Part shown: positions 963-18,438 of the stretch, one piece after another
Layout: every line of letters starts with the position of its first letter
Numbering within the stretch: position 1 is the stretch's first letter
Source: a virus
Length of the DNA stretch: 64,000 nucleotides
Virus record (IMG/VR): IMGVR_UViG_3300031951_000060
Location: 1-64,000 of that record
Strand: one strand, 5' to 3'
Made by a program: the position numbers and the translations under genes
The notes under the pieces: model-generated
The model's database searches: none
What the model saw: the letters and a program-made list of their open reading frames with translations, nothing else
Told to the model about the DNA's origin: nothing

Positions 963-972
963 AGATTGAGCC

Positions 973-1692: not shown

Positions 1693-1693
1693 T
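1685..1693 (+). promoter_or_regulatory. Extended -10 promoter TGaTATAAT overlapping the upstream stop codon
   Basis: Exact TGnTATAAT match, followed by GAGGAGG SD and ATG at 1709; the motif recurs before many genes. Confidence 0.6.
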
Positions 1694-1708
1694 TTACGAG
1701 GAGGAACT

Positions 1709-2709: not shown

Positions 2710-2726
2710 TCAAAGGGGTGGTTTAA

Positions 2727-3377: not shown

Positions 3378-3385
3378 GAGGAGAT

Positions 3386-3688
3386 ATGGCTACTACACCA
3401 AAATTAATGTATCGTGGAAATGCAGCAACATCTAACACCACACTTTATACAGTTGGTTCTGGAAAAACTGGAATTGTTACTGATATCGTTGTAACAAATA
3501 CAGATTCTGTGTCTGCTACTTTTACAATTAATCTTAATGGTACCGCTTTGCTTTCTGCAGCAACAATCGCAGCAAATAGCATGGCAACTTTTGAATTAAA
3601 ACAAGTATTAGAAGCAGCAGATACTATTTCTGGTTCTGCATCTGCTACTACTGTTAAATTTCATATAAGCGGAGTTGAGGTTGTCTAA
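3386..3688 (+). CDS. Small fibre-associated virion protein
   Basis: TTLYTV...IVTDIVVTN...FHISGVE beta-sandwich pattern; AGGAG SD. Confidence 0.5.
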   Translation: MATTPKLMYRGNAATSNTTLYTVGSGKTGIVTDIVVTNTDSVSATFTINLNGTALLSAATIAANSMATFELKQVLEAADTISGSASATTVKFHISGVEVV

Positions 3689-4290
3689 TGGCTTATTCCG
3701 TATACCCCGCACCTAGTTCTGGAATAACAGTCTCAGATGGAAACAATGCTGGTTGGAATCTTGGAGAAACTCAATGGGAGCAAATCTCTGAGTATAAAAA
3801 TGCAACAACTGTTGCTAATATAGATTTTTCTAGTATTCCGCAAACCTATAGAGGTTTAAAGTTGCAAATTGTTGGGTTAACTTTGTCAACTGCTGATCAA
3901 GTTTATTTAAGAATTAATAATGATTCTACTGTTAGCACTTATTCAAGATTTGGAAGAGCAGAAAGATCAAATAATAGTGGAACTATAACAGTAATACAGC
4001 AACATTCTCAAAACAAAATACAATTAAACGGAGATCAAAATGTAGAGTCAGGAAATACTTTTCATTGTTTCATACATTTTCCAAATTATACATCTTCTAA
4101 TGTTAAAAAACTTGAGTGGAACTCATATTATCAAACCGCAGTTGGAGCAGAAACTTTTTCTGCAGAGGGCACTTTTAGAAAAGGAACAACAACCCCAGCA
4201 ATAACATCTTTGAGATTACTTACCAATAGTACTAATATGTATTTTGATGGTAATGAGGCATTATCTGCATCATTGTGGGGTATAAAGTAA
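3688..4290 (+). CDS. Putative fibre tip/receptor-binding-type protein
   Basis: [13 protein letters not shown]...AITSLRL...SLWGIK pattern typical of phage fibre C-terminal domains. Confidence 0.5.
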
Positions 4291-4291
4291 A

Positions 4292-6028
4292 ATGTCAACA
4301 GTTAGTTCAACCAGTAAAGTAGCATACATGTATGACCAAGCGTCAGACACTTGGTATGCTGTTGCTGGTACTGCTAACACAAATGTTGCATATAACTGGA
4401 ATGCTGCTCATACTTTTGGATCTGTTGTAACTGTTAATGATGTTATTCGTGCCAAGGGTGGAGTAAATAGATTTCAAAACCCTACCGCCAGAAATACAAT
4501 AATCCCATCTCCTGTTAAAGGTACAGTTTGTTTTGTTGAGCAAACAGACGGCGGTACTGATATTAACCAAGTTCAAATTTATAACGGCACATCATGGGTA
4601 GGAATGTTAGATACCGAAACCCTAGTAACAAAAACTTCTGATTATACTTTAGGTCTTGCAGATGCAGGAAAAACTATTCTTGTTGATTCGACTCTATCTA
4701 GAAACATCACTATTCCAACAAATTTGTCTGTTCCATTTGCAATTGGACAAACCTTAAAAATAAATAGGCTAAATACTGGCGCTGTAAATATAGTAGGCTC
4801 ATCTGGAGTTATTATAAATAGTAGACAGGCTTCGACATCGATTGCAGAAAGATATGGAGTTGTAACTCTTATAAAAACAGATTCTGATACTTGGCTATTA
4901 TATGGCGACCTACTTCTTTCTTCTTCTTTTATTTCAACACCTACCCCTACCCCAACACCTACTCCTACTCCTACTCCAACAATAACTCCAGCACCTACCC
5001 CAGCACCTACCCCAGCACCTACCCCAGCACCTACACCTACTCCAACATCAGCACCAGAACCAACACCAACACCAACACCGACACCGACACCAACACCAAC
5101 ACCAACACCAACACCGACACCAACACCAACTCCAACACCAACCCCAATTCCAACAGTAACCTGTGGATCTCAATATGGAACGACTACTGGAGGAGTTTAT
5201 AGCGGATCATGTCCAGATGGGTCATGTCCAGGATGTACTCATTATCAAGAAGCCTGGTATAAGTGTTCTGACGGAACTACAAGTTCTACTAAGATATATG
5301 TTGGACTTGGATGTTCTACCCCAACACCAACCCCAACTCCGACTCCTACACCAACAACAAATTGTACTGATACAAGTCTTTTGTCTTCATCTCAGTGCGC
5401 TGACTGTGGTATGGTTTGGAGTCCTTTGTATGGTGAATGTATTTATGAATCATCGCCAACACCAACACCAACACCTACCCCAACACCTACACCAACACCT
5501 ACACCTACACCTACACCTAATCCATGCTCTGGAGATATTTCTCTTCTTGGCCCAAGTGCGTGTCAGTCTTGTGGATATTATTATTCAACCCAATTTGGAG
5601 AATGTATTGATATGCCTTCTCCAACCCCAACACCAACCCCAACACCAACCCCTACTCCTACCCCTACACCAGCACCGACACCTTCGCCTTGTGTTGCAGG
5701 CTCATGGGCATATTCTGAAACACCATGCCAAGATGGAACAGAATATGGATATAGATATAATGCAGACTGCAGTATGTATTGGTCAACAAGATCTTGTTCA
5801 AGTTCCCCAGCGCCTACCCCAGCGCCTACCCCAGCACCAACTCCAGCGCCTACCCCAGCACCAACTCCAGCGCCTACCCCAGCACCAACTCCAGCGCCTA
5901 CCCCAGCACCAACTCCAGCGCCTACCCCAGCACCAACTCCAGCGCCTACCCCAGCGCCTTGTGAGTGCGTAATGGATGAATGTTGGATGGGATGTCCTGC
6001 ATGCTGTAATGGTCAGTGCGGATGCTAA
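4292..6028 (+). CDS. Fibre protein with extensin/mucin-like Pro-Thr/Pro-Ala tracts alternating with Cys-rich modules
   Basis: N-terminal phage fibre domains ending ...TWLLYGDL, then five (PT)n/(PAPT)n tracts separated by Cys-rich modules; terminal [22 protein letters not shown]. Confidence 0.75.
4937..5959 (+). repeat. Coding tandem repeats (6-, 12- and 24-nt units) encoding PT/PAPT tracts
   Basis: For example, five exact copies of ccagcgcctaccccagcaccaact at 5819-5938. Confidence 0.9.
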
Positions 6029-6058
6029 CTTAGTGTATAATGTATAAAAAGGAGAAAA

Positions 6059-6496
6059 ATGGCCAAATTTGCATTCGTAGTAAATAATTCAGTGAAATAT
6101 GTTCTTTCACTTACTTCAGATTCAGAAGTTAATAATAAATGGATTGCTGCCTTAAAATCTGATATTGTTTTTAAAGATGCATCGTTAAACTATGGACTTG
6201 CTCCGTTAGATTTATTTATAGATAATAAATTTTATAAAAATAATAACGGTAACTTGGTCGAAGTTGTTGAAAATGAAGACTGGCAAAACTCAGATGCCAT
6301 TAGAATTGCAGGAATTATAGATGGAGAGGTGATTGGCATGAGAATAATAAATAAAGATGCCTTTTCAGAAGAAGATTTGCAAAGAATTGTAGATGCTTTC
6401 TTGTCAAATTCATCTATCATTGAGATAAGTGAAGATTCTCAGGTATCCATAGGATGGAACTGGGATGGCGACAATTTTTCAGAACCGAGCAATTAA
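6059..6496 (+). CDS. Small fibre-associated/assembly-type protein (two-repeat architecture)
   Basis: C-terminal IGWNWDGDNFSEP motif common in proteins downstream of phage fibres; AAGGAG SD. Confidence 0.5.
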   Translation: MAKFAFVVNNSVKYVLSLTSDSEVNNKWIAALKSDIVFKDASLNYGLAPLDLFIDNKFYKNNNGNLVEVVENEDWQNSDAIRIAGIIDGEVIGMRIINKDAFSEEDLQRIVDAFLSNSSIIEISEDSQVSIGWNWDGDNFSEPSN

Positions 6497-6735
6497 TGTC
6501 TGAAGAATTATCAGCATGGCAAAAATATAAACAAAATTTAGGAGAAACCAGGCCATGGGATTTGGTAAATCCTAATAGTGAATGGGTTTCAGAAGAAGTG
6601 TCTTCTTCACGTTATGAAATATGCAAGGCATGCCCAGAATTGATAAAATTAACCAAACAGTGTAAAAAGTGTGGATGCTTCATGTATGCAAAAACTAGAT
6701 TAGAAAAAGCAACTTGTCCGATAGGAAAATGGTAA
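6496..6735 (+). CDS. Small Cys-rich metal-binding protein (DUF6171-like)
   Basis: RYEICKACP...QCKKCGCFM.AK.....ATCPIGKW; start reassigned to ATG 6496, overlapping the upstream stop. Confidence 0.6.
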   Translation: MSEELSAWQKYKQNLGETRPWDLVNPNSEWVSEEVSSSRYEICKACPELIKLTKQCKKCGCFMYAKTRLEKATCPIGKW

Positions 6736-7331
6736 TGAATAAAATCGAAATTGCTCCAGGAATAATGATTTACAAAGATGTAATAGATGGATACGAGTCT
6801 ATCATTACTGATATAGAGGATGCTGTATTATTAAAGTCAGCATCATGGTCCCCTGCAGGAGTAAAAAGTGGAGAGCAGAATGGGGTAGATACAACCAAAA
6901 GAGATACTCTAACTATAGGTATTCCATATTCTGCAACGCCACAAGAAGATTTATCTAGTCCCTCTAAGGCGTTTTACTCTATTCTGGGCGGTATATTCTT
7001 TAATGCTTTTGATCCAGTAGAAAAAGATTATGCAAGAACTTATATGATTGATCTCCCATGGCATGACACATATGGAATACTAAAATATGGTGTGGGGCAA
7101 AAATTTGTAAACCATATAGACGATCATACAGATTATCACAGAAGAGTGTCTTTTGTATATTATTTAAATGATAACTATACTGGAGGAGAAATTAATTTCC
7201 CAAGATTTGATATATCGTACAAACCAAAAGCAAATGAAATGTTAGTTTTTCCATCAACATATGTATATAATCATTCTGTATCAGAGGTCACAGAGGGAGA
7301 ACGCTACGCCGTTGTAAGTTGGTTAAGATAG
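6729..7331 (+). CDS. 2OG-Fe(II) oxygenase, prolyl 4-hydroxylase-like
   Basis: LKYGVGQKFVNHIDD (HxD), YLNDNYTGGEINF, distal His in HSVSEV, and ERYAVVSW 2OG-binding motif. Confidence 0.85.
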   Translation: MVMNKIEIAPGIMIYKDVIDGYESIITDIEDAVLLKSASWSPAGVKSGEQNGVDTTKRDTLTIGIPYSATPQEDLSSPSKAFYSILGGIFFNAFDPVEKDYARTYMIDLPWHDTYGILKYGVGQKFVNHIDDHTDYHRRVSFVYYLNDNYTGGEINFPRFDISYKPKANEMLVFPSTYVYNHSVSEVTEGERYAVVSWLR

Positions 7332-7349
7332 TGTGGTATTATTTATAAT

Positions 7350-8276
7350 ATGTCTACTATATTTATAAGTATTCCTTGCTATCAAGATCCAGAAATATGG
7401 GAAACAGTTTCAAGTTTTTATAATAATGCTACTAATCCAGAAAATGTTTATTTTGGAATTACTAATCAGACAGATTCTCCAGAATTACACAAGGAAATGC
7501 TTTTAAAATTCCCAAATGTACAAATGCATATCTTGGAGCCTGGATCTTTGCCAGGGTGCCAGCCAGCAAGATTAAAGTCCCATGAGTTTTATGATGGGCA
7601 GGACTACTATTTAAACATGGACTCTCACATGAGAGCAGTTAAAGATTGGGATTCTAGGCTAATAGCAGAATTAAATGAAACAAATTTTATATACGGACCT
7701 TCAGTGCTAACTGGATACGTTGCAGGATATGACAAAGATGAATACGGAAAAGATATAATTCCTGAAGTTACATATACTACAGTTTTTAGAATGAATGAAA
7801 AAAATATAAATCATTTTATAAATCATGGCATTCCTCAGTTTATTTCCTTTCCTCATGAAACCAACAAGCCAATACCATCTCCGTACATCTCTGGTCATTT
7901 TTTCTTTACTACTGGTCAAGCAGTTTTAGATTCACCTTTTGTTGAAGATGTATTTTTTACAGAAGAAGAAATTTTTATGGCTGTTAGATTTTTCACTGCT
8001 GGATATAACTTATTTCAACCGACTACAACATATGTGTATCATAGATATGGAAGAAACAATCGTAGACTTTTTTGGGAAGACTTTCCTGAACATTGGTATG
8101 AAAATGATAAAAGGTCAAGAGATTTTGTAAATAATGTTTTACAAAACAATATAATTGATCCTAAAAAGGGATTATTTAATAAAAGAACTTTAGACGAGTT
8201 TGAGGAATATTCTGGAATTAATTTTAGAAAAAGAGCGTTATCAGATTCGGTAATTAAGGGTACATCGTATTTATAA
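7350..8276 (+). CDS. GT60/Gnt1-like polypeptide (hydroxyproline/Thr) N-acetylglucosaminyltransferase
   Basis: TIFISIPCYQDPE...ATNPENVYFGI N-terminus, MDSHMR..KDWD motif, F..EE...AVRFFTAGY: hallmark motifs of the Skp1 GlcNAc-transferase family. Confidence 0.8.
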   Translation: MSTIFISIPCYQDPEIWETVSSFYNNATNPENVYFGITNQTDSPELHKEMLLKFPNVQMHILEPGSLPGCQPARLKSHEFYDGQDYYLNMDSHMRAVKDWDSRLIAELNETNFIYGPSVLTGYVAGYDKDEYGKDIIPEVTYTTVFRMNEKNINHFINHGIPQFISFPHETNKPIPSPYISGHFFFTTGQAVLDSPFVEDVFFTEEEIFMAVRFFTAGYNLFQPTTTYVYHRYGRNNRRLFWEDFPEHWYENDKRSRDFVNNVLQNNIIDPKKGLFNKRTLDEFEEYSGINFRKRALSDSVIKGTSYL

Positions 8277-8280
8277 AATA

Positions 8281-8331
8281 AAAATATCCCAGAGCCAAAC
8301 AATATGAATGACCCTGGGATATTTTATTTAT
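8281..8331. terminator. Bidirectional intrinsic terminator between convergent genes
   Basis: Inverted repeat aaaatatcccag (8281-8292) / ctgggatatttt (8314-8325) with A- and T-rich flanks. Confidence 0.65.
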
Positions 8332-8895
8332 TTATTGCGGGAATTTACCAATCCATTCTTTTGTCCTTGGTGTTATTCCTTTCCAAGCACTCCAGTTTTC
8401 TCCGCCATTTGACATATGAAATGCGATTTGTGCATTTACAACTGGATTAAACAAGTCTGCATTGTGATCTAGGTCATATTTATTACGACGATCAGGACCA
8501 AGCATTCCGAGCATATTTATCTGGAAAATTCCATAAGAACTGTCTCCAGTTTTAGTATTTCCATTGAATGCAAGTGGTCGACCATTACTTTCTTTTTTAG
8601 CAATAGCCCATGCCTCCTTGAGATTTTGACCTTCAAATCCTACTAATTTAAGTAGTATCTTTAGGTCTTTATCAGATAGAGATGTGGCGTTGTTGTATTT
8701 TTCTAACTGATCTTCTTTAGCCTCAGAAACACTTTTGGCCTCTTTCGAGGCCTCTTTTGTTTCTTCTAGCACGATAGGTTTTATATCGTTTAATCGGTTT
8801 TCAGAAGCATTAGCAGCGTTTGACCAAACGGCAAACATAGCCAATATGCTGAGTGTACCAATGATGTTCTTGTTATTATTCATAAAAGTAATCAT
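8332..8895 (-). CDS. Secreted/anchored lysozyme-like lytic transglycosylase
   Basis: N-terminal hydrophobic signal; AWAIAKKESNG (catalytic Glu), SYGIFQIN, NWSAW motifs; start set at ATG 8895 behind a GGAGG SD. Confidence 0.8.
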   Translation of the reverse strand: MITFMNNNKNIIGTLSILAMFAVWSNAANASENRLNDIKPIVLEETKEASKEAKSVSEAKEDQLEKYNNATSLSDKDLKILLKLVGFEGQNLKEAWAIAKKESNGRPLAFNGNTKTGDSSYGIFQINMLGMLGPDRRNKYDLDHNADLFNPVVNAQIAFHMSNGGENWSAWKGITPRTKEWIGKFPQ

Positions 8896-8949
8896 AGTTT
8901 CCTCCTTAGAAACAGATAACACCTTTTTAGGGGTGTTATATTACTTCCT

Positions 8950-8992
8950 AGTATAACACAGTTTGAGCCAGATAGTCAAACAATGATATAAT
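8950..8992. promoter_or_regulatory. Back-to-back divergent promoters
   Basis: Minus strand TTGACT-18-TATACT with TG extension (8950-8979); plus strand TGATATAAT (8984-8992), 8 nt before ATG 9001. Confidence 0.6.
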
Positions 8993-9000
8993 AATCTTCT

Positions 9001-9516
9001 ATGGCTGAAATAACTAATAACTATGGTCTAACATATCCAGAAGCATCTGACGCTGTAAATGTTCATAATGATATTAAAAAATTAGCGGATGATGTTGATG
9101 ATGCAATATCTTCTCTTGACGCATCAAATGTGCGGGTAAAGGTAACAAATAACTCAGGCTCAACCATAGGTGCAGCAAAACCAGTTTATGCAACAGGACA
9201 CACGAATAACAAAACAACAATATCTTTGTTTACCTTTGGACTCTCTGATGATAAACCATTTTTGGGATTAACAAAAACTTCTTTAAATAATGGAGAGTCT
9301 GGAGAAGTGGTTGTTGCTGGAGTTTTAACAAATGTCAATACAAGTGGATTTCCTGTAGGGTCCTTGCTTTATGTAGATTCTTACGGAGCATTGACTAATA
9401 CTGTCATTGGTGGCGCAATCGGAATTGTGGCTGTATCTAACACATCTACTGGCGTGATTGTTATTCAGGCAAAAGGAAATGGGACATGGGGAGCATTGAA
9501 GGCTGGATTAGCCTAA
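9001..9516 (+). CDS. Virion protein (cement/decoration-like C-terminal domain)
   Basis: GLTYP.....NVH.DIKKLA N-terminus and G.....GESGEVVVAG...GSLLYV C-terminal pattern. Confidence 0.45.
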   Translation: MAEITNNYGLTYPEASDAVNVHNDIKKLADDVDDAISSLDASNVRVKVTNNSGSTIGAAKPVYATGHTNNKTTISLFTFGLSDDKPFLGLTKTSLNNGESGEVVVAGVLTNVNTSGFPVGSLLYVDSYGALTNTVIGGAIGIVAVSNTSTGVIVIQAKGNGTWGALKAGLA

Positions 9517-9533
9517 TATGATATAATAATTAA

Positions 9534-9938
9534 ATGGCTCAGTTACGTGGATCTGCTTCTTCATATGATATAGGGAATAAACCTCCAACAATTGTTTGGA
9601 CTATTGTGAGAGGAGATACTGCATCATTTAAGGTTTATGTAACAGACGATGAAAAGCAGCCACTAAATATTCCAGACTGGAATATTAATATGAAAATAAA
9701 ACGTCCCAACAATACAGTTAACTTAGGCAAAATTACAGACGACGCTACATTAATTTTATCGCTAACACCATTAGCCGATGCAGATGATCAAATAGGAGAA
9801 TTTACAGTATCATTATTGTCATCAGAATCACAAATTCTTGAAACGGGAGATATCTTCGATATTCAATTGTCAAACGCAACATATGTTTGGACAGTTGCTC
9901 AGGGTAGCATGAAAATTCTTGAAGATGTAACAGATTAA
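9534..9938 (+). CDS. Virion structural protein, BppU N-terminal-like
   Basis: VRGDTASF...PLNI...FDIQL...WTVAQGSM; paralog-like to ORF 1709. Confidence 0.5.
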   Translation: MAQLRGSASSYDIGNKPPTIVWTIVRGDTASFKVYVTDDEKQPLNIPDWNINMKIKRPNNTVNLGKITDDATLILSLTPLADADDQIGEFTVSLLSSESQILETGDIFDIQLSNATYVWTVAQGSMKILEDVTD

Positions 9939-10162
9939 TGGCATCGGCAAAAATATTAGATAAAAATCAAAACAAATTAAAACTAATAAATGCAGTATCA
10001 TATGCAATAATTAACGTAGCAGATAATACAAGAGTAACTAAGATAAATGAAGTTCTTCCTTTTAGAGTTAAGTTTACTAATATAGGGATTGAAGGATATA
10101 GCAAAACAAACCCAGCAGGCATCGGCATTGCGGTAATTGGTTTTAGCAACTACATCCTTTAA
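9938..10162 (+). CDS. Hypothetical protein
   Basis: 74-aa ORF, translationally coupled (TAATG). Confidence 0.5.
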   Translation: MASAKILDKNQNKLKLINAVSYAIINVADNTRVTKINEVLPFRVKFTNIGIEGYSKTNPAGIGIAVIGFSNYIL

Positions 10163-10192
10163 TAATATAAAAATGGAGGTTATAATATAGCC

Positions 10193-10639
10193 ATGGCAAA
10201 AATATCAATACCAGCCGTAAAAAGTAAGTTCCAGACTGGTGATCGTCCTACTCAGCAGGATTATGAAGATTTGATTGACACCCTTGCTGGTGCAGGAAAC
10301 GATCTTGGCTCTTCTGGAAATAATGAAAACACAATCTCTGGCATTGAAAATGTCACAGTGATAGATAATTTTGACGCCACCGAATGGCGTATGGTCAAAT
10401 ACTTGGTCTCAATTGCAAAAACAACTGCGGGAGATAACAAGTTTTATGCAACAGAGTTGACCATCTTGGTAGACGGTACAAATGTAAACGTCTCTGAGTA
10501 TGGCACAATAGACAATGATGGGAATATTGGCACCATTAGCGTCTCCAGGGCTGGAAATACAGTATCCTTGACGGTTACTCCAGATCCTGCGATTAAGCCA
10601 GTCACAGTTCGTTATGCACGAATTGGACTTAAGGCATAA
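10193..10639 (+). CDS. Virion appendage protein
   Basis: KSKFQTGDRPTQQDYEDLIDT N-terminal motif; C-terminal domain resembles that of ORF 10655. Confidence 0.55.
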   Translation: MAKISIPAVKSKFQTGDRPTQQDYEDLIDTLAGAGNDLGSSGNNENTISGIENVTVIDNFDATEWRMVKYLVSIAKTTAGDNKFYATELTILVDGTNVNVSEYGTIDNDGNIGTISVSRAGNTVSLTVTPDPAIKPVTVRYARIGLKA

Positions 10640-10654
10640 CTAAGGAGATAAAAA

Positions 10655-12277
10655 ATGGCAACAGTCGTAAAAGACTTTAAGGTAAAGAATGGTCTGATTG
10701 TTGAAGGCGAAACAGGTACCATCAACAACCATGATATTCTTACAAAGAAAACAGATGACCAAAACTATATTATTGGTCTTATTGGCGGTTCTTCAGATTC
10801 CGCTAACACCCCAAATACAGTTGTAAAACGTGATGGCTCAGGCAATTTTGCTGCAGGTACAATTACAGCAAATCTTACAGGCGATGTAACTGGTAATGCA
10901 GATACAGCAACCACACTTGAGACTGCTCGTACAATTTCTTTGGCTGGAGATGTAACAGGTTCTGTATCATTTGATGGTTCACAGAATGTAAGCATTACAG
11001 CAACAATTGATGGATCTTTTGCAACAGATGCAGAAGTTGCTACTGCTAAAGGCGAAGCAATTTCAGATGCAGCATCAGATGCAACTACAAAGGCAAACGC
11101 TGCTAAGTCTGGCGCAGAAGCAACAGCAGCAGCAGCACTCGCTTCTGCAGTTTCTGATTTAGAAGATTATGCAGATCAGGCAGAGGCTGATGCTAAGGCA
11201 TATACCGATACTCGTGAGACTGCTATTACAGCAGCATATCAATCATATGCAGATACAGCAGAAGCAGACGCAAAGTCTTATGCTGATCAAAAGGTTGCAG
11301 ATCTTGTAGATTCTGCACCAGCACTTCTTGATACACTCAATGAATTGGCTGCAGCAATTGGCGATGACGCTAACTTTGCAGCAAACCTTGCTACATCAGT
11401 AGGAGAAAAGGTTGCAAAGGCTGGAGACACCATGACTGGCGCTCTTGTTCTTCATGCAGACCCAGTAAACAATCTTGAAGCAGCAACTAAGGCTTATGTT
11501 GATGCAGCAGAGGCAGATGCTAATGCATATGCAGATCAGGCTGAAGTTGACGCAAAAGCATATACAGACACTCGTGAGACAGCAATTACAACTGCTTATC
11601 AGTCTTATGCTGATACAGCAGAAGCAGATGCTAAGACATATGCAGATGGACTTGCTTCAACAATAAATGGAACTATTGCAGCACTTGATACAGACGATGT
11701 AGCAGAAGGTTCAAACCAGTACTTCACAGATGCTCGTGCTAAGGATTCAGCAGCAGCACTTCTTACAACTGCTACATTAGAAAACATCACAATTACTGGT
11801 ACAGGTAATGGTGGTCTTGTAATTACCGCAGAAAATGGTGTTGCAGACTCTACAACTGATGATCTTGCAGAAGGCGTAAACCGTCTTTACTTCACAGATG
11901 CTCGTGCAGTATCTGCTCTTGAAGCAGTTACTCCAGACTTCCCTGCAGTAGAGATTGCTTCTGTAGCAAAGCAGGTAGCAGCACAGGCAACTGTCGCAAC
12001 TGCAAGCACAAATACAGCAGTTTCATGGGCTAAGGCAGATTATCGTTCTGCTGAATTTCTTGTGAAGATTGCCAATGGATCTCACACAGAGGTTTCAAAG
12101 GTTATCCTAACACTTGACACTTCAGACAACGTAGCAGTTACAGAATATGCAATGGTTGGAACAAACGGTTCTCTTGGATCAGTTTCAGCAGACGTTTCTG
12201 GCAGCGATGTTCGTCTTCGTGTTACAACCGATAATAACAACTCAACAGTTGCAGTTATGGGTACGCTTTTAAAGTAA
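10655..12277 (+). CDS. Tail fibre/appendage protein with Ala-rich coiled-coil repeats
   Basis: VVKRDGSGNFAAG, LETARTISLAGDVTGSVSFDGS and APALLDTLNELAAAIGDD fibre motifs; internal duplication YADQAE.DAKAYTDTRETAIT.AYQSYADTAEADAK. Confidence 0.75.
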   Translation: MATVVKDFKVKNGLIVEGETGTINNHDILTKKTDDQNYIIGLIGGSSDSANTPNTVVKRDGSGNFAAGTITANLTGDVTGNADTATTLETARTISLAGDVTGSVSFDGSQNVSITATIDGSFATDAEVATAKGEAISDAASDATTKANAAKSGAEATAAAALASAVSDLEDYADQAEADAKAYTDTRETAITAAYQSYADTAEADAKSYADQKVADLVDSAPALLDTLNELAAAIGDDANFAANLATSVGEKVAKAGDTMTGALVLHADPVNNLEAATKAYVDAAEADANAYADQAEVDAKAYTDTRETAITTAYQSYADTAEADAKTYADGLASTINGTIAALDTDDVAEGSNQYFTDARAKDSAAALLTTATLENITITGTGNGGLVITAENGVADSTTDDLAEGVNRLYFTDARAVSALEAVTPDFPAVEIASVAKQVAAQATVATASTNTAVSWAKADYRSAEFLVKIANGSHTEVSKVILTLDTSDNVAVTEYAMVGTNGSLGSVSADVSGSDVRLRVTTDNNNSTVAVMGTLLK

Positions 12278-12307
12278 TAAAATAAATAAAAAGAGGGAGT
12301 GGTAATC

Positions 12308-12763
12308 TTGGCAACAGTCAACAAGGACTTCAAGGTTAAAAATGGACTTATCGTCACTGGTGGCGGTTCGTTCGGAGGAGCGGTAGTTGTAGGAACTCCT
12401 ACAGATTCTACCCACGCTACTACTAAAGCATACGTAGATTCAGTAGTAGGCGGAATGCAAGTCGGGGCTACCGCTCCCTCTTCACCAGACAATGGTGATT
12501 TATGGTTTGATACATTAACAGAAAGAGTTAATGTATATTATGGTGGCTCATGGCTTACCATAGCAACAATTGATGATACCCTCAATCTGCCAGAACATAT
12601 TCATGATGAGGCAATTGATGGCACAGGATTTATTGTTACTAAATTCGTCGATGGCGGTAGTTTCAATGATCCACAAGGAACTCCTGTAGACGCAGGAACT
12701 CCAACAACGTCATCTTGGGCATTAGTCTATAATGGCGGTATAGCAACAGATAACTTCAACTAA
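12308..12763 (+). CDS. Short fibre/appendage protein
   Basis: TTG start after GAGGGAG gives MATVNKDFKVKNGLIV, nearly identical to the N-terminus of ORF 10655; HATTKAYVD and APSSPDNGDLWFDT motifs. Confidence 0.6.
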   Translation: MATVNKDFKVKNGLIVTGGGSFGGAVVVGTPTDSTHATTKAYVDSVVGGMQVGATAPSSPDNGDLWFDTLTERVNVYYGGSWLTIATIDDTLNLPEHIHDEAIDGTGFIVTKFVDGGSFNDPQGTPVDAGTPTTSSWALVYNGGIATDNFN

Positions 12764-12820
12764 AATTGATGTTATAATAAGACATAAACTTGGTAGAAAT
12801 ACCATAAGGAGAGAATAAAT

Positions 12821-14482
12821 ATGGCAACAAGAATGCAACAGCGTAGAGGAACCGCTCAACAGTGGACTGACGCAAACCCTATTTTAGCAGCAGGAGAAAT
12901 CGGATTTGAGACTGACACAGGCAAGTTCAAGATGGGTAATGGTTCGTCTGCTTGGTCTGCCCTCTCCTACTTTACTGACTCATCAGACTTTGATACAACA
13001 AGTATCAATAATACAATTAACTCAACAGTAAGTGCAGCAATTGCAGGAGTAGTTGCAGCAGCACCAGGTGCTTTAGATACACTTAATGAGTTAGCAGCAG
13101 CAATTGGAGATGATCCAGACTTTGTGTCTACAATTACAGATGCAATTAGTTATAAGGCTCCATCTGCAAATCCAACATTTACAGGAACAGTTGCTCTTCC
13201 AGCAGCAACCAGCGTAACTATGAATGGCGTAAGTATTGAAACATATGTTTCTAATGAAATTGATCCAGTAGAATCACAAGTTAGCAATATTGCTTCTCAA
13301 GTTACCACAAACGAAGGAACACTAAATACTCTTTCTGGTACAGTTTCAAATATTGCAACTCAGGTAAATAATAACGAGTCTACTTTAAACTCTTTATCTG
13401 CATCAGTTGATACTTTATCTGACCAGGTTGATACAAATGAAACATCACTAAATTCATTGTCGGGTACAGTAAGTAACTTGTCTTCATTAGTTAATACAAA
13501 TGATGGAACCTTAACTCAGGCAGTTACAAATATCTCAACATTATTTGCCACAACCTCAGATCTAGAGGATGCAGATACAGCAATGGCAGCAGATATTTTA
13601 ACAAATGCTACAAATATTTCAAACATAGATTCAAACGTATCTACATTAACTGGAAATCTTAGTGCTTTAGATACACGTGTTGATGTTACAGAATCAGATA
13701 TTTCCGATTTAGAAACATCAACTTCTGCACACTCTTCTGCCACAATAAATGTGCATGGAATTGCAGATACTTCAGCACTTGCTACAAAATCTTATGTTGA
13801 TAGCGCAATTGGAAATACTGAAAATTATGCTGATACCGCACTTGCCCTTAAGGCAAATTTAGCGTCACCAGCACTAACTGGAACTCCAACTGCACCAACA
13901 GCGACAGTGGGCACTGATACAACTCAAATTGCTACAACAGCATTCGTACAAGATGCGATTGAGGCAGTTGTAGGTGCAGCCCCAGCAGCACTAAATACGC
14001 TGAGTGAATTAGCAGACGCTCTTGCTGATGATGCTAATTATGCGTCAACAGTTACATCTTCGTTAGCGCTTAAGGCACCACTTGCCTCTCCAACATTTAC
14101 AGGAACAGTTGCTCTTCCAGCAGCATCATCTGTAACGCTTGGCGGAACTGCACTATCAACAACACTAGCAGATAAGGCAGATAAGGCTGCAACTATTAAT
14201 ACAATGAATGGTTCTCATACTGCAGTTGCTGCAGATCTTGGAAATCTTCGTGAAATGAGCGGTGGCGGAACATTTACGATTCCATCAGACAACTCTTTCT
14301 GGCCAGTCGGCGGTACAGTAGATGTTCTTCAAACAGGATCATCTCAGGTAACTATTGTTGGCGCATCAGGTGTAACAGTTAATGCTACACCAGGTCTAAA
14401 ACTTCGTACTCAGTGGTCTTCTGCAACAGTGTTGAAGAGATCAGCAAATACGTTCGTGGTCATGGGCGACCTATCAGCCTAA
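12821..14482 (+). CDS. Tail fibre protein: Mtd_N-like N-terminus, heptad coiled-coil shaft, C-terminal ...GDL domain
   Basis: MQQRRGTAQQW..ANPILAAGEIGFETDTGKFKMGNG (major tropism determinant N-terminal motif); LDTLNELAAAIGDD; SPALTGTPTAPTA. Confidence 0.8.
   Translation: MATRMQQRRGTAQQWTDANPILAAGEIGFETDTGKFKMGNGSSAWSALSYFTDSSDFDTTSINNTINSTVSAAIAGVVAAAPGALDTLNELAAAIGDDPDFVSTITDAISYKAPSANPTFTGTVALPAATSVTMNGVSIETYVSNEIDPVESQVSNIASQVTTNEGTLNTLSGTVSNIATQVNNNESTLNSLSASVDTLSDQVDTNETSLNSLSGTVSNLSSLVNTNDGTLTQAVTNISTLFATTSDLEDADTAMAADILTNATNISNIDSNVSTLTGNLSALDTRVDVTESDISDLETSTSAHSSATINVHGIADTSALATKSYVDSAIGNTENYADTALALKANLASPALTGTPTAPTATVGTDTTQIATTAFVQDAIEAVVGAAPAALNTLSELADALADDANYASTVTSSLALKAPLASPTFTGTVALPAASSVTLGGTALSTTLADKADKAATINTMNGSHTAVAADLGNLREMSGGGTFTIPSDNSFWPVGGTVDVLQTGSSQVTIVGASGVTVNATPGLKLRTQWSSATVLKRSANTFVVMGDLSA
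13171..14125 (+). repeat. 37-bp exact direct repeat (13171-13207 and 14089-14125)
   Basis: tccaacatttacaggaacagttgctcttccagcagca occurs twice, 918 nt apart and in frame. Confidence 0.85.
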
Positions 14483-14510
14483 TAATAACTAAAAAAGGAG
14501 ATTGATTTAA

Positions 14511-15545
14511 ATGGCATTACAAAGAAGCAGAGGTAGAACAGTAAGAAAGTCTCAGGTACCAACCTTTTCAACTTCTTTTACTAGATCTCAATATCAGTCT
14601 ACCCTTAGTTCATTAGGATTGTCTTATTCGGAGTCGTCATTTAATACAAGTGATAACGGATTAGACCAAAAATGGCAAGCACAAAATATTACCCCAGGAA
14701 CAGTTGTTCCATTTGGAACTACTATTGGTATTACATATTATATGTATGTATATCCTGGTTTCAGCCATTACGGCGGATTTGGTCACTATGGTGGCTTTGG
14801 TCACTATGGTGGCTTTGGTCACTACAGTAACTTTGGTCACTACAGTAACTTTGGTCACTACAGTAACTTCAGCCATTACGGCGGATTTGGTCACTACAGT
14901 AACTTCGGCCATTATAGTAACTTCAGCCATTATAGTAACTTCAGCCATTACGGTGGTTTTGGTCACTATAATAGTTTTAGTCATTATGGGTCCTTTAGTC
15001 ATGGATATGGTGGCTTTGCCCACTACGGAGGATTCTACGGCGGATTTAGCCATCATGGTGGTCTAGGCTGGTACTCTATTGGAGCACAAACTGGTATTTT
15101 GACACCAACTGGATCAATTACTGCAGAAAATGTTAAGGTTGGAGATAAACTATTAGCATTAAATGTTGACGAGATTGATTTATCAACCTTTAATCCAAAT
15201 GATTGGACGTCTGAAACCTTTACATCTCCATCAGTTGTAGAAACAGAGGTTGTCTCTGTGGTAAAACATGTTAAAGATACTGCTGTAAGAATTAATGGTG
15301 ATGTATTTTCACAAAGCCATAAAATCCTAACAAGAAAAGACGGAATAGTGCAGTTTGTATTATCAAGTCTAATCGACGGATCTTTTGAGGTTTGGAGTTA
15401 TACTGAACAAAATTGGGTTCCTGTAACAGAATTTGAAACAATATCTTATATTGATAAGGTATATTCTATCAACTGTGAGCCATACGACATGTTCTTTACT
15501 AACAACATGTTGGTTTACGATAGCGATTCAAACATACCATCCTAG
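14511..15545 (+). CDS. PASTA-like domain + (xxF[G/S]HY)n hexapeptide repeat + C-terminal Hint-like domain protein
   Basis: VP......QSTLSSLGL...AQNITPGTVVPFGTTI (PASTA-like); about 15 GGFGHY/SNFGHY/SNFSHY units; SIGAQTGILTPTG...ENVKVGDKL...SQSHKIL...VYSINCEPYDMFFTNNMLVYD (Hint blocks A, B, F, G). Confidence 0.75.
   Translation: MALQRSRGRTVRKSQVPTFSTSFTRSQYQSTLSSLGLSYSESSFNTSDNGLDQKWQAQNITPGTVVPFGTTIGITYYMYVYPGFSHYGGFGHYGGFGHYGGFGHYSNFGHYSNFGHYSNFSHYGGFGHYSNFGHYSNFSHYSNFSHYGGFGHYNSFSHYGSFSHGYGGFAHYGGFYGGFSHHGGLGWYSIGAQTGILTPTGSITAENVKVGDKLLALNVDEIDLSTFNPNDWTSETFTSPSVVETEVVSVVKHVKDTAVRINGDVFSQSHKILTRKDGIVQFVLSSLIDGSFEVWSYTEQNWVPVTEFETISYIDKVYSINCEPYDMFFTNNMLVYDSDSNIPS
14754..15056 (+). repeat. 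18-nt coding tandem repeat (about 15-16 degenerate units)
   Basis: ggtggctttggtcactat / agtaactttggtcactac / agtaacttcagccattat variants in tandem. Confidence 0.9.
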
Positions 15546-15559
15546 TAGAAAGCGGTATC

Positions 15560-16303
15560 ATGGGAAGACTTCCTAATGATGAGTATTATCCAAAAGAATG
15601 GAAAGAAAATCAGCCATACGTTCATAAACACGAAGACATATCACTAAATTCTGATCGTGTAACTAAGGGAGATATGGCAACACCATTTTCCATCAGTCCA
15701 CAAATATCTGACTTTACGAGAAAGTTTGGCGAAGAGTTAGCAGAAATGCCTACTGCAGAAGAGATGGCTCAATGGCATTTTCCCTGGGATAAAGAATACA
15801 GAGAGGGAACATCCTTTTTTGTACCAGAAAATAGATATACTCATGAAGCAATATTTCCTCCACAATTAGTTAAAGATAATATTTATAAAATATTACTTTC
15901 TCCAGATATATATGTAAAGATAATTTCTTCTGAATTAATTTTAAATAGTAAAAAACACATAACAAACGAGTATAAATTTATTAGTAGAACTCTTTATACT
16001 CATCTAGAGCCTACAGATAAAATAATTGAAGATGAGTCTATGTGGGAAACTTGGTGCCCTAGAGTGTATCAATGGAATATTAGGTGGCTACCAAAAGACA
16101 ATGCAAGATTAACATTTTTTGTGGATAAAGATATTGAAGATATGCTATACTGTAATGTAGAGGAATACTCTATAGATACAAAAGATATTGACGGAGGATG
16201 TGTGGCAGTCCCAGTTACTTTTAGGAGGGGTTTAAAGAAAAAAATGGCATATATGAAACATGATACCCCTTATTTATACTTAAAGGTTGACACCTATGAA
16301 TAA
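15560..16303 (+). CDS. Hypothetical protein, probable divergent paralog of the next two genes
   Basis: PKEWKENQPY, ISPQISDF, YQWNIRWLPK and HDTPYLYL align loosely with PLWWRKQEPY, KCPGILDL, FVWDMRWGTK and AGTPIMSI. Confidence 0.5.
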   Translation: MGRLPNDEYYPKEWKENQPYVHKHEDISLNSDRVTKGDMATPFSISPQISDFTRKFGEELAEMPTAEEMAQWHFPWDKEYREGTSFFVPENRYTHEAIFPPQLVKDNIYKILLSPDIYVKIISSELILNSKKHITNEYKFISRTLYTHLEPTDKIIEDESMWETWCPRVYQWNIRWLPKDNARLTFFVDKDIEDMLYCNVEEYSIDTKDIDGGCVAVPVTFRRGLKKKMAYMKHDTPYLYLKVDTYE

Positions 16304-17009
16304 AAAAAATATTATAAACTTTATTCCAAAAGATGAATACACTATTGAGTATGCATCAAAGCCAGAGCCAATGTCTAAAAACTTCCCTCTATGGTGGAGA
16401 AAACAAGAACCATATGTTGGTGGAGAAAAAAGAGTGGTAAATGGGCAATATAATGAAACTGTAAAAAAGTGTCCAGGAATATTAGATTTACTAGTTACTG
16501 GTTATCTTCTTAAGACCCCATGTGATATTTATGTGGATACCACTGAAGATAAATTACAATTTCAGGTTCATGATGCACACAAAGAATGCGTAACTATTCA
16601 TACTAGAGAACAAGTTGGCAATTGGGATTTTGATAGATCTGTCTGGTCAGATGATATTTTTAGAATACATCCTATGTGGGTTGTAACTACTCAAAAGGGC
16701 TATAGTACTTTATTTATTCATCCATCATTTCACAATGACCTACCATTTGATATTGTTCCAGCAATTATAGATACAGACATGTATCCATCAGATGGGCCAT
16801 TTTCTATGAGATTTAAAAAGGGTTTTAAGGGTGTAATAGAGGCTGGAACTCCACTCGTTCAATGTATCCCATACAAAAGAGAGCATTTTGAAGCCAACAT
16901 ATTGGAAAAGCCTGATTTAAAAATTTTAAAATCTTTACAACAAAAATTAAGACACAAGTTTGGCGGATCTTATAAAAAATTAATGTGGGAAAAGAAGGTG
17001 TTTAATTAA
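16296..17009 (+). CDS. Uncharacterised DUF6065-like (dUTPase-fold-like) protein
   Basis: P.WW....KKCPGILD....GY.L.TP.D...W....KGYSTLFIHP...IIDTD...GTPLVQCIPYKR. Confidence 0.55.
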   Translation: MNKKNIINFIPKDEYTIEYASKPEPMSKNFPLWWRKQEPYVGGEKRVVNGQYNETVKKCPGILDLLVTGYLLKTPCDIYVDTTEDKLQFQVHDAHKECVTIHTREQVGNWDFDRSVWSDDIFRIHPMWVVTTQKGYSTLFIHPSFHNDLPFDIVPAIIDTDMYPSDGPFSMRFKKGFKGVIEAGTPLVQCIPYKREHFEANILEKPDLKILKSLQQKLRHKFGGSYKKLMWEKKVFN

Positions 17010-17770
17010 TGGATAAATTTGAAGAAAAGTATAAAAATCCAGAACCACTAGAGGACAACGTGGTAAAGTTTTTTACCTCTAGTGCATATATTAAAACAAC
17101 TCCAAGCCCAGTGCCAGCAATAAACAATTTGCCAAACTGGTGGAAAGATAGGCCAATCTATCAAAGAAATGATGATATTGATAGATTATCTATAGTTAAT
17201 AATCGTGGTGCGGATGCAGCATCTATTAGCGTTAAGCATTGTATGCCGTTTTTTGATGCTCTTACATGTGGATATCACTATCTTTTACCAACCACAGTGA
17301 CAGTAAAAAAGACAGATGACCCAGATACTCCAGACATATCCTGGGACCCAACAAAAGCACGTCCTATAGAGATGCGTGGACATATAGAACTTCCAGTCCC
17401 AGCAAATTGTTATCCAATTCACTTTGTTTGGGATATGAGATGGGGAACAAAAATGCCAGATGGTTGGTCAGCAATGATCACTCATCCAATTGATAGGTAT
17501 GATCTTCCGTTTTTTACAATGACGGCAATTCAAGATTCAGACAGATGGTTTACTGGAAATGTTGTGACATTCTTTTTAAGAAAAGATTTTGAGGGTGAAA
17601 TTCCAGCAGGAACTCCAATAATGTCCATTATTCCAATTAAAAGAGCAAATTGGACGATGGAAGTTGACCACTCCCTTATGCACGAGGGTCTGTGGGATTT
17701 AGAGAGAAAAAGAAATTATTTATATGGATTCTATAAAAAGCATAGATGGATTAGAAAAAAATATCGATAG
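17009..17770 (+). CDS. Uncharacterised DUF6065-like protein, paralog of the upstream gene
   Basis: PNWWK...VKHCMPFFDALTCGY...PDGWSAMITHP..RYDLPF....IQDSD...GTPIMSIIPIKR. Confidence 0.55.
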   Translation: MDKFEEKYKNPEPLEDNVVKFFTSSAYIKTTPSPVPAINNLPNWWKDRPIYQRNDDIDRLSIVNNRGADAASISVKHCMPFFDALTCGYHYLLPTTVTVKKTDDPDTPDISWDPTKARPIEMRGHIELPVPANCYPIHFVWDMRWGTKMPDGWSAMITHPIDRYDLPFFTMTAIQDSDRWFTGNVVTFFLRKDFEGEIPAGTPIMSIIPIKRANWTMEVDHSLMHEGLWDLERKRNYLYGFYKKHRWIRKKYR

Positions 17771-17778
17771 GAGATAAA

Positions 17779-18438
17779 ATGAACAACTACGAATATGGCG
17801 ATTCACATCAGCCAAGTGTTAGCAGGTCCAAAAAAGAGCATTTGTTCTTTGAAAGACAAATAGATATTAATGATACAGATCACCTAGCAAAATTAATGCT
17901 TGATCTAAATGAAAGAATATCTAGGGGAGAAGTGATCAAGGGAGATAGAAATCAGCACACCCCATGGGATAACTCTGGTAGTCAGCCAACAATTAATTGG
18001 AATAAATATAATGTATTTCAAGTATATGACAAAAACATACATACCCTTTTTAGGGCAGTTAGAGACATGACAGTTGAAGCATGTAAGCATTATGAGTTAG
18101 ACTTTACTAAAGAGCAGTTTATGGTTCAAGGTTGGTTTAATGTCAACTACAACCATATTGGAAAACTAGATTGGCATGAGCATGGTGGTGAAGGTGCGCC
18201 ACATTTTCATGGCTACTACTGCGTTAAGGCAGAGCCATCAATAACCTATTATCGTGTTTTTGAAAAAGAAATAGAAAATCATAATAAAAATAATCGTGCC
18301 ATATTGTCAGAGACAGGACACCCACATGCCATGGGTGACTGGGATTGGGAAGGTCCAAGAATTACTATAGCCTATGATGTAATTCCATTAAGACTTATTC
18401 CTATGGAGTGGGAGCAGCACTGGATTCCTTTGGTGTAA
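17779..18438 (+). CDS. Putative 2OG-Fe(II) oxygenase (HxH-type)
   Basis: WFNVN...WHEH...FHGYYCV...HPHAM...RITIAYD double-stranded beta-helix motifs. Confidence 0.7.
   Translation: MNNYEYGDSHQPSVSRSKKEHLFFERQIDINDTDHLAKLMLDLNERISRGEVIKGDRNQHTPWDNSGSQPTINWNKYNVFQVYDKNIHTLFRAVRDMTVEACKHYELDFTKEQFMVQGWFNVNYNHIGKLDWHEHGGEGAPHFHGYYCVKAEPSITYYRVFEKEIENHNKNNRAILSETGHPHAMGDWDWEGPRITIAYDVIPLRLIPMEWEQHWIPLV

Follow-up and report, generated by a model that had tools for sequence, protein, structure and literature searches.

Two fibre genes of an uncultured phage share a beta-sandwich knob domain that neighbours hypervariable repeat proteins

Two fibre genes in an uncultured phage record of about 100 kb (100.6 kb) end in a common knob domain, a shared segment of about 100 aa that is a beta-sandwich capping the C-terminus of phage fibre proteins. 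The knob matches known folds and PHROG families; the layout in which a knob-ending gene precedes a gene for a hypervariable repeat protein (the partner), often together with genes for modifying enzymes, is the usual one in hundreds of related phage contigs and looks undescribed. The best overall explanation, which we consider somewhat probable, combines a homologous fibre-end knob, an adjacent partner gene and a partner borne by the knob as a second-tier appendage. The window analysed here is the whole stretch of 64,000 nucleotides from IMG/VR record IMGVR_UViG_3300031951_000060, and its region from 0 to 15.5 kb is a run of fibre-like genes. The two knob-bearing genes read as follows.

4292..4594, + strand: N-terminal half of ORF4292; in relatives this part makes up the first ~100 aa of a 209-aa protein that stands on its own
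4595..4915, + strand: knob copy 1, ORF4292 aa 102-208 (HMM envelope; PHROG matches)
4916..6028, + strand: fused extension of ORF4292, with linkers of (PT)n and (PAPT)n type, Cys-rich modules (four or five) and, at the C-terminus, a Cys-rich tag
12821..14164, + strand: fibre shaft of ORF12821, an Mtd_N start (PF18454, E 5.6e-14), then coiled-coil and tail-fibre repeats
14165..14476, + strand: knob copy 2, ORF12821 aa 449-552, at the extreme C-terminus (HMM envelope; PHROG matches)

The first-pass annotation held that ORF4292 and the end of ORF12821 share a domain, and the two copies are indeed one homologous domain, present at both places. Compared directly by BLASTP they give a weak alignment (28% identity over 57 aa, E 0.002). 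With the ORF12821 segment as tblastn query, the only other match in the whole record (100.6 kb) was the ORF4292 segment (E 2.4e-6). Homology is settled by independent profiles and proteins: both knobs match the last ~100 positions of phrog_8780, 18179, 21978 and 21510 (E 1e-10 to 1e-17), and both match the same C-terminal end of minor tail proteins from Gordonia phages, among which Polly gp27 ends right after the same Gly-Asp-Leu motif. An HMM built from both window segments gave the envelopes listed above. The family is very large, with 24,945 clusters at 50% identity (E<=1e-3), and the knob is C-terminal in 120 of the best 150 family hits. ORF12821, which also matches the tail fiber family phrog_454 (E 5e-56), ends 1 aa past the envelope. 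ORF4292 has a further 370 aa after its knob, which is terminal in its 22 relatives. Pfam has no model for the family, and its models, T4_gp9_10_N included, left the knob unmatched at E<=0.1 in both window proteins and at E<=0.01 in 33 family members.

Structure prediction agrees with a beta-sandwich. The AlphaFold model of knob copy 2 (pLDDT 89.8) has fold matches with Z of 9-12, the best being the C-terminal knob (CTK) of the Pa223 capsid spike (residues 187-292, Z 12.4, 103 residues aligned). This spike, gp52 of a Pseudomonas phage, is trimeric (PDB 9ny6), and its authors suggest that the CTK has a part in host recognition (bioRxiv 10.1101/2025.06.11.659172). In both phages the knob is the outermost, C-terminal part of a short fibre or spike. 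The Pa223 knob differs in sequence (12% identity to the window knob), its spike is capsid-borne and has a shaft built as a triple beta-helix, and no repeat protein is described as its partner. The other matches are of XD1 type, with 84-104 residues aligned: CBA120 TSP4 residues 50-185 (the XD1 range, Z 9.9), T4 gp9 residues 66-165 (Z 9.2) and T4 gp10 residues 25-149 (Z 9.1). The fold is the same beta-sandwich, and the proteins that contain XD1 serve as carriers of further fibres or spikes in branched adsorption complexes. In contrast to those carriers, knobs of the window type are C-terminal and often tandem, have no match to Pfam T4_gp9_10_N, and, in a comparison for which the knob alone was modelled, come with no detected XD2 or XD3, the TSP4 matches falling on XD1.

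Relatives show what lies beyond the knob. They belong to a broad lineage of uncultured 80-118-kb phages and were drawn from IMG/VR as two samples of about 80 loci apiece, the second more distant; for locus 1, 23 relatives have 42-99% identity to the N-terminal half of ORF4292. In each of the 5/5 related genomes examined, exactly two genes end in the knob, and a repeat-protein gene comes after both of them. In the complete genomes examined, one of the two encodes the 209-aa protein and the other a fibre of 530-660 aa that starts with Mtd_N and has a coiled-coil shaft, and the partner gene begins 0-40 nt after each. The window follows this pattern at its second locus, where, as the initial reading had it, the repeat protein is the next gene: ORF14511 starts 29 nt beyond the stop of ORF12821.

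14511..14765, + strand: N-terminus of ORF14511, a basic peptide then a PASTA domain (profile of 22 homologues)
14766..15065, + strand: tandem hexapeptide repeats of ORF14511, GFGHY / SNFSHY type (translation)
15066..15545, + strand: C-terminal domain of ORF14511, Hint / bacterial-intein-like superfamily by profile (13 homologues)
15560..18438, + strand: four tightly packed genes, 15560, 16287, 17009 and 17779 (no Pfam/NCBIfam match)

Partners are 150-700 aa long. They start with a short basic peptide and a PASTA or FN3 domain, continue with hypervariable low-complexity repeats, in many cases interspersed with Cys-rich modules, and finish in a Cys-rich tag or in an intein-like Hint domain; the low-complexity fraction of ORF14511 as a whole is 0.30. 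A profile of 22 partner N-termini matches the PknB PASTA domain (E 1.7e-17), and Pfam PASTA (PF03793) matches 21/22 partners (best E 1.7e-11), with the window's own ORF14511 at 14.8 bits, below the cut-off of 23.2. At the other end, a profile of 13 C-termini including that of ORF14511 matches the BIL domain 2lwy (E 5e-6) and the gp41-1 intein (E 4e-4), which by sequence places this domain of ORF14511 and of many partners in the Hint / bacterial-intein-like superfamily. It differs from BIL/Hint domains in being terminal, with little or no C-extein, and may have a role in self-removal or transfer. The idea that the low-complexity region is the exchangeable part is borne out by median identities among locus-1 relatives, which are 77% for the 209-aa protein, 49% for the first 82 aa of the partner and 19% for its remainder.

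In the gene neighbourhood of the knob, a low-complexity ORF lies downstream in 56/68 further IMG/VR loci against 9/406 control ORFs, and the figure is 50/56, 10/14 and 5/6 when knobs are clustered at 90%, 70% and 60% identity. In the more distant sample such an ORF is found in 34-38/59 loci, and about 40% have other genes there. Four cultured phages have a knob-ending gene with no repeat-partner link. The one general design proposed from the window is partly supported: in this lineage, knob gene, repeat protein and accessory genes follow one another in that order at both loci of 5/5 genomes and across two samples. As a property of the whole domain family, the link is ruled out by the four cultured phages and the ~40% of the distant sample.

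At locus 1 the window departs from its relatives. The 22/22 that are readable have a counterpart of ORF4292 of about 209 aa (207-211), with a stop two residues past Gly-Asp-Leu, and a separate repeat protein as the next gene. In the window, PT repeats come directly after Gly-Asp-Leu in one ORF, and the extension (low-complexity fraction 0.63) corresponds to the downstream repeat protein of relatives minus its basic peptide and PASTA domain; one of its Cys modules has 62% identity to repeat proteins that contigs L010 and L011 encode separately (E 1e-5). As read from its sequence, ORF4292 joins the 209-aa protein in frame to a partner lacking those two N-terminal parts. The earlier statement that the repeat is fused directly after Gly-Asp-Leu is correct for the window and describes this record only. 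The fusion could be an assembly artefact, given that its junction (searched as a 30-mer and a 49-mer) is in no other viral or metagenome contig and that contig L004, which is 99% identical, ends just before it. A chimera would have joined the end of a 209-aa gene to the repeats of the next gene across pyrimidine-rich low-complexity DNA, and we regard this as a real, if less than even, possibility. The junction DNA is a CTT/TCT run, the relatives uniformly have the stop and a separate PASTA-led gene, and contigs L004, L006 and L022 all break at or near this gene, which marks the region as hard to assemble. On the other hand, the join is in frame and is followed by 370 codons without a stop, the flanks of the junction are unique sequence and not repeat, and its absence elsewhere is weak evidence since the record of the window itself was excluded from those searches. 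If ORF4292 is a chimera, the two cassettes share a single two-gene layout, and the Rosetta-stone evidence falls away.

The genes after the partner vary among relatives and include those for the Zn-ribbon protein, DUF6065-like proteins, 2OG oxygenases and glycosyltransferases. In the window, those of cassette 1 are the following.

6454..6735, + strand: small Zn-ribbon protein resembling DUF6171 (PF19668, E 2.4e-5, 25 bits, below the cut-off of 27)
6714..7331, + strand: 2OG-Fe(II) oxygenase ORF6714, prolyl-hydroxylase-like family (PF13640, 68.3 bits against a cut-off of 27)
7350..8276, + strand: glycosyltransferase, GlcNAc-transferase family (PF11397, E 4e-52, 178 bits)
8332..8922, − strand: lysozyme-like (SLT_3) gene (PF18896, E 2.3e-15)

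By tblastn, the Zn-ribbon gene lies after the repeat gene and before the lysozyme-like gene in most locus-1 relatives, and the latter is conserved in relatives (56-87% identity) and closes the variable cassette 1 on its right-hand side. Homologues of the PF11397 glycosyltransferase (25-27% identity) are found in the PT-repeat relatives L010-L012, and oxygenase homologues occupy the downstream side of the knob in 46 loci and the upstream side in 5, counted over 69 loci with at least 3 kb downstream and 62 with at least that upstream. The matched modifying enzymes that had been proposed are accordingly present in cassette 1, as an oxygenase and a PF11397 glycosyltransferase, and not recognisable in cassette 2, where genes 15560-18438 had no match in Pfam, NCBIfam or PDB, no detected enzyme homology and, against the ORF6714 oxygenase family, an hhalign probability below 3%. 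These genes match phrog_7084, whose function is unknown in PHROG, and DUF6065 is present in 12-23% of members of their nearest Atlas clusters. ORFs 16287 and 17009 are paralogues. Downstream of the knob there are relatives of 16287 in 32 loci (the phrog_7084-like count) and of 17009 in 31, against 4 loci upstream for each, and for relatives of 17779 the counts are 20 and 0.

Calling the knob a docking domain goes further than the fold does, which is that of an XD1 spacer or distal knob and not of XD2/XD3. We modelled the natural sequence of the knob, a 14-aa spacer, the basic peptide and the PASTA domain as a single-chain AlphaFold read-through. Both domains were confident (PASTA pLDDT 96-98), and the linker and basic peptide reached pLDDT 49-57 with a pTM of 0.52, in what is a weak test (a monomer, without PAE and with almost no paired rows). 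Branched receptor-binding complexes, such as CBA120 TSP1-4 and G7C gp63.1/gp66, are marked by XD2/XD3 jellyrolls on the carrier and by a second fibre or spike protein bound to it. In CBA120 TSP4, XD1 is near the N-terminus and probably a spacer, and docking is by the XD2 and XD3 jellyrolls (PMC8825819). The XD1 fold was counted against docking, as was the fact that synteny kept among relatives can be inherited without any interaction. Counted for an adaptor role were that the conserved part of the partner is exactly its first ~82 aa, that locus-1 partners have one common N-terminal subtype while repeats and end modules are common to both loci, and that the covalent fusion in the window does without the adaptor.

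An appreciable minority of our belief goes to the knob being a distal receptor-binding fibre tip, with the repeat proteins as separate entities, either virion appendages of their own or PASTA/FN3 accessories that bind the cell wall, adjacent through a common late operon and joint inheritance. PASTA domains are cell-wall ligand binders in PknB-type kinases, so the target of the partner N-terminus could be the host wall and not the knob. The best fold match, a distal trimeric knob with a suggested role in host recognition, fits such a separation, as do the predominantly terminal position in the best family hits, the cultured phages whose knob-ending minor tail proteins have no repeat partners, the lack of confident docking in the read-through and the run of fibre-like genes over the first 15.5 kb. 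It is less easily reconciled with a partner that stays directly after the knob gene at two loci per genome, to knob identities of 60% or below, despite reshuffled cassettes, or with the N-terminus being the only conserved part of the partner, or with the knob-repeat fusion, if the assembly is correct. We think it very improbable that the downstream protein is instead a fibre assembly factor or chaperone, with Hint and repeats active only in maturation. Tail-fibre chaperones are typically encoded immediately 3' of fibre genes, where the partner lies, and Hint domains, to which superfamily the partner end belongs by profile match, cut themselves off. However, chaperones are usually small and conserved, and the partners, at 150-700 aa, are hypervariable, Cys-rich and surface-like, and accompanied by modifying enzymes.

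In the second-tier reading that we prefer, the partner would be suspended from the knob trimer by its conserved N-terminal adaptor. The partner's repeats would serve as a flexible tether, which may be hydroxylated or glycosylated by the enzymes encoded alongside, and which would hold out a variable C-terminal module to the host envelope. Recombination within the partner gene, past the adaptor, would exchange both the chemistry of the repeats and the end modules.

Some parts of this arrangement have counterparts in cultured phages. The C-terminal domain of the Gordonia minor tail proteins (phrog_8780 and relatives) is a direct sequence homologue of the knob (34-43% identity), likewise terminal and closing with the same motif, but the next gene encodes an ordinary protein of ~190-290 aa without low-complexity repeats, and oxygenase and glycosyltransferase are absent nearby. 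Phage-encoded glycosyltransferases modify the major capsid proteins of cluster F1 mycobacteriophages such as Che8 (Freeman et al. 2023, as cited in PMC11256854). Going by that citation, the likeness is that structural proteins of actinobacteriophages are modified by enzymes of the phage; unlike them, the presumed targets in the window are separate hypervariable repeat proteins by fibre genes, and an oxygenase precedes the glycosyltransferase in the gene order.

Taken together, these observations lead us to propose, tentatively and with more doubt than conviction, a widespread and undescribed two-tier appendage system of uncultured, probably aquatic phages. In it, a conserved fibre-end knob would recruit a hypervariable low-complexity bristle through a PASTA/FN3 adaptor, oxygenases and glycosyltransferases would tailor the repeats, and a Cys-rich tag or a self-processing Hint domain would stand at the end. 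If true, this system would parallel, in phages, the modified surface polymers of extensin or mucin type, and would serve to diversify adhesion to the host.

The first-pass annotation proposed that two fibre genes of this phage share one end domain, each copy being linked to a repeat protein and to modifying enzymes. This domain, here termed the knob, is about 100 aa long and occurs twice in the window, which represents the first 64 kb of a 100.6 kb record estimated to be 93% complete. The genes concerned are the following:

nt 87-15,545, + strand: run of fibre-like genes in the window
ORF4292, 578 aa: N-terminal part of ~100 aa, knob at aa 102-208, and a 370-aa extension in which (PT)n linkers alternate with Cys-rich modules
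ORF12821, 553 aa: Mtd_N start, coiled-coil tail-fibre shaft, knob (aa 449-552) ending 1 aa before the stop
ORF14511: repeat-protein gene, starting 29 nt past ORF12821

Direct BLASTP of ORF4292 against ORF12821 gives a borderline match (28% identity over 57 aa, E 0.002). Despite this, the homology of the two segments is established by three other comparisons: when the ORF12821 segment is used as query against the whole record, its sole other match is the ORF4292 segment (E 2.4e-6); the same four PHROG families match both copies in the last ~100 positions, with E between 1e-10 and 1e-17; and in more than 200 minor tail proteins of Gordonia phages both copies match the same C-terminal end, one of these proteins, Polly gp27, terminating directly after the same Gly-Asp-Leu motif. 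The annotation was thus right that the two segments are one shared domain, and also that the gene next to ORF12821 encodes a repeat protein. A megablast search of nt 4000-16000 against GenBank phages gave no match. Two small ORFs in the window (1709-2125 and 9534-9938) each match phrog_1084, of unknown function; they may be paralogues, which suggests an appendage module built from repeated units. Shortly after the second cassette lies a gene for a B12-dependent (class II) ribonucleotide reductase (19165-21195), and this junction is conserved in the related genomes L027 and L029.

A search profile built from the two window copies retrieved 24,945 clusters at 50% identity with E<=1e-3, and 9,683 with E<=1e-10. 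In 120 of the 150 top-ranking proteins the final knob lies no more than 15 aa from the C-terminus, and 80 of the 150 carry two knobs in tandem; where the protein extends beyond the knob, the extension is often collagen-like. The proteins P0006 (3206 aa) and P0007 (2401 aa) are of the kind in which tandem knobs, up to 22 copies in one protein, lead into collagen-like Gly-x-y tails. The knob has no match in Pfam-A, either in the two window proteins or in 33 members of the family, searching PDB sequences with the two-copy profile returned nothing meaningful, and the Atlas neighbours of the knob are unnamed viral clusters.

The AlphaFold model of the knob is a confident beta-sandwich (pLDDT 89.8, pTM 0.81). 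In fold it comes closest to the knob at the C-terminus of the Pa223 trimeric capsid spike (Z 12.4), followed at Z 9-10 by baseplate chains of Klebsiella phage KP1, CBA120 TSP4 50-185, T4 gp9 66-165 and T4 gp10 25-149. Residues 50-185 of TSP4 correspond to XD1, which the structural study of CBA120 considered a probable spacer, docking being assigned to XD2 and XD3 (PMC8825819). The matches of the modelled knob land on XD1 and not on a docking jellyroll of the XD2/XD3 type, so that the domain is best described as a knob at the fibre end with an XD1-type fold. Such a fold would by itself be compatible with a docking role or with none; it neither proves nor excludes one.

Exactly two knobs are present in each of five related records, of which four have an estimated completeness of 100%: one in a 209-aa protein, the free-standing counterpart of the N-terminal part and knob of ORF4292, and one in a fibre of 530-660 aa. 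In all five, a repeat-protein gene lies within about 30 nt 3' of the large fibre; some of these partners are orthologues of ORF14511, and the others begin with FN3, carry aromatic-proline repeats and end in a Cys-rich or Hint module. Relatives of the ORF12821 knob are encoded on more than 555 IMG/VR stretches, of which the best 80 (48-80% identity) were sampled. In 68 of these 80 loci an ORF of 100 aa or more lies downstream, and 56 of the 68 were of low complexity (fraction >=0.15), versus 9 of the 406 other ORFs of the same loci. Because the loci are related by descent, such counts are not independent events; when knobs are clustered, a repeat partner is found for 50/56 clusters at 90% identity, 10/14 at 70% and 5/6 at 60%. 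Relatives of the cassette 1 oxygenase ORF6714 were found downstream of the knob in 46 loci and upstream in 5, those of the cassette 2 gene ORF16287 (phrog_7084) in 32 and 4, and those of ORF17779, also of cassette 2, in 20 and 0.

In a second sample, seeded with a distant family member, repeat partners made up 34-38 of 59 unique downstream ORFs, the remainder being Gly-rich proteins or members of a ~185-aa non-repeat family. The cultured Gordonia phages Polly, Zitch and BiteSize and the cultured Brevundimonas phage Bajun all have, 3' of the knob, a gene without low-complexity sequence. The proposed enrichment of the domain upstream of repeat proteins and oxygenase clusters is therefore borne out in the sampled IMG/VR lineage and fails in these four phages: the link between knob and repeat partner is strong and broad, yet it belongs to a lineage and is not shared by every member of the knob family. 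Where no repeat protein comes next, the neighbour is often a non-repeat protein of ~180-290 aa that begins with a short hydrophobic or basic stretch (L161, L162, L166, L174, L175, L178, L183 and L193; Polly gp28, Zitch gp44, BiteSize gp28), and a recurrent family among these ends in ...FALYG[VI][KR]. They may constitute an alternative class of partner.

Relatives of the N-terminal part and knob of ORF4292 occur on 23 IMG/VR contigs. In 22 of the 22 that can be read, the protein is 207-211 aa long and stops two residues past Gly-Asp-Leu, and a separate partner gene begins ~8 nt downstream. These partners share a conserved N-terminus of ~85 aa, after which the repeats differ wholly between phages (PT, VTPP, VTPG, NTV/QNT, FFPP, YSFTP and FGVFGFSP among them), with interspersed Cys-rich modules and sometimes a Hint end. 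In most relatives a small Zn-ribbon gene follows, then variable oxygenase and glycosyltransferase genes or none, and a conserved lysozyme-like gene on the opposite strand closes the locus. The Zn-ribbon protein (~76-93 aa, CxxC...CxxCGC; window 6454-6735) is DUF6171-like, just under the Pfam cut-off, and with homologues in L008-L023, L029 and L030 it is a near-constant companion of the repeat-protein gene.

Given that the relatives have two separate genes, ORF4292 would join the 209-aa protein in frame to its partner, without the N-terminal domain of the latter; this fusion is unconfirmed. Its extension and the free-standing partners in L010 and L011 have a Cys module in common (62% identity, E 1e-5). 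An exact search for the fusion junction in viral and metagenome collections found it in no other contig, and L004, which is 99% identical to the window, stops just short of it. Several independent contigs (L004, L006, L022) end at the 209-aa gene or directly behind it; the repeat genes seem difficult to assemble, which bears on the trust to be placed in the fusion. The annotation's direct fusion of the repeat after Gly-Asp-Leu is hence seen in the window, but it is not the design of the locus.

The enzymes postulated for both cassettes were recognised in the first, where ORF6714 is a 2OG-Fe(II) oxygenase (PF13640) and ORF7350 a GlcNAc-type glycosyltransferase (PF11397); no enzyme homology was found for the second. 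Its ORFs 15560, 16287, 17009 and 17779 have no sequence match in Pfam, NCBIfam or PDB, and in the named Atlas clusters nearest to ORF16287 only 12-23% of the proteins have DUF6065. Profile-profile comparison of these genes with the ORF6714 family gave probabilities below 3%, so that an oxygenase identity is rejected on present evidence, and they are best regarded as conserved companions. In locus 1, within one small sample that includes close relatives (L005-L026), oxygenase or glycosyltransferase genes adjoin Pro/Thr and Asn/Thr repeats (PT, VTPP, VTPG, NTQ); they are absent beside the four aromatic repeat types FFPP, YSFTP, FGVFGFSP and FTFTP, where the Zn-ribbon gene alone remains. In L030 (G004:C1:1-11600, reverse strand) a large-fibre cassette is followed by some nine packed genes for ~220-300-aa proteins, several with 2OG-oxygenase-like motifs by eye towards the gene ends and one sulfotransferase-like in appearance, a putative tailoring cluster far larger than that of the window.

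Of 93 knob-partner pairs, classed by our own motif patterns, 44 have a PASTA-like partner N-terminus, 35 an FN3-like one and 14 one of another type. The PASTA assignment is solid at the sequence level: a profile from 22 partners matches the PASTA repeats of PknB (E 1.7e-17), and 21 of the 22 score as PASTA in Pfam; the copy in ORF14511 is itself under the Pfam cut-off and aligns with the partner family. The partner N-termini of the two loci are homologous. ORF14511 and its relatives end in a domain of the Hint/bacterial-intein-like superfamily (2lwy, E 5e-6); a related-locus search with the Hint part of ORF14511 alone found none. Across nine locus-1 relatives, median pairwise identity falls from 77% in the 209-aa protein to 49% in the first 82 aa of the partner and 19% in the rest, which points to module exchange inside the partner gene, after its N-terminal domain; such exchange would leave this domain and the knob together. 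The Cys-rich C-terminal tag of ORF4292 (5960-6025, C..C...CW..CP.CC..CGC) reappears with little change at the termini of repeat proteins that begin with FN3 and lie behind the large-fibre knob in L067, L072 and L073; as it recurs in both cassette types, end modules are common to both.

Does the knob dock its partner? The locus L033, whose knob-partner pair is about 73-80% identical to that of the window, was modelled as a natural in-frame read-through, with TAA as Gln, containing the knob, a 14-aa spacer, the basic peptide and the PASTA domain. In this single chain both domains were predicted with pLDDT >90, the spacer and basic peptide with 49-57 (pTM 0.52), and there was no confident 1:1 interface, in what was a weak test, being a monomer with hardly any paired alignment rows and no PAE; the read-through model was accordingly set aside as a stand-in for a multimer. 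Three indirect points support an adaptor role for the partner N-terminus: it is conserved and stays next to its knob; its locus-specific subtypes persist even though repeats and end modules are common to both loci; and it is missing from the covalent ORF4292 fusion, if that fusion is real. Co-variation between knob clade and partner N-terminus would carry no such weight, as common descent would give the same pattern. The notion of one general design thus describes the gene architecture largely correctly, the fusion and the cassette 2 enzymes being the exceptions, and is unproven as a mechanism.

No publication describing this layout of knob, repeat protein and enzymes was found in the literature searched. 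The hosts are probably Gram-positive, a guess based only on the presence of PASTA and on the homologues in Gordonia phages. In aquatic viromes phage 2OG-Fe(II) oxygenases are common, and for most of them no substrate is known. The conserved order of fibre knob, repeat protein and oxygenase/glycosyltransferase offers a testable candidate substrate for these enzymes. Our results also define a large, so far unmodelled family of fibre-end domains, and locate the site at which appendage modules are swapped by recombination, after the N-terminal adaptor of the partner. If the knob is a docking site, this would be a new way to build branched, chemically modified organelles for host recognition.
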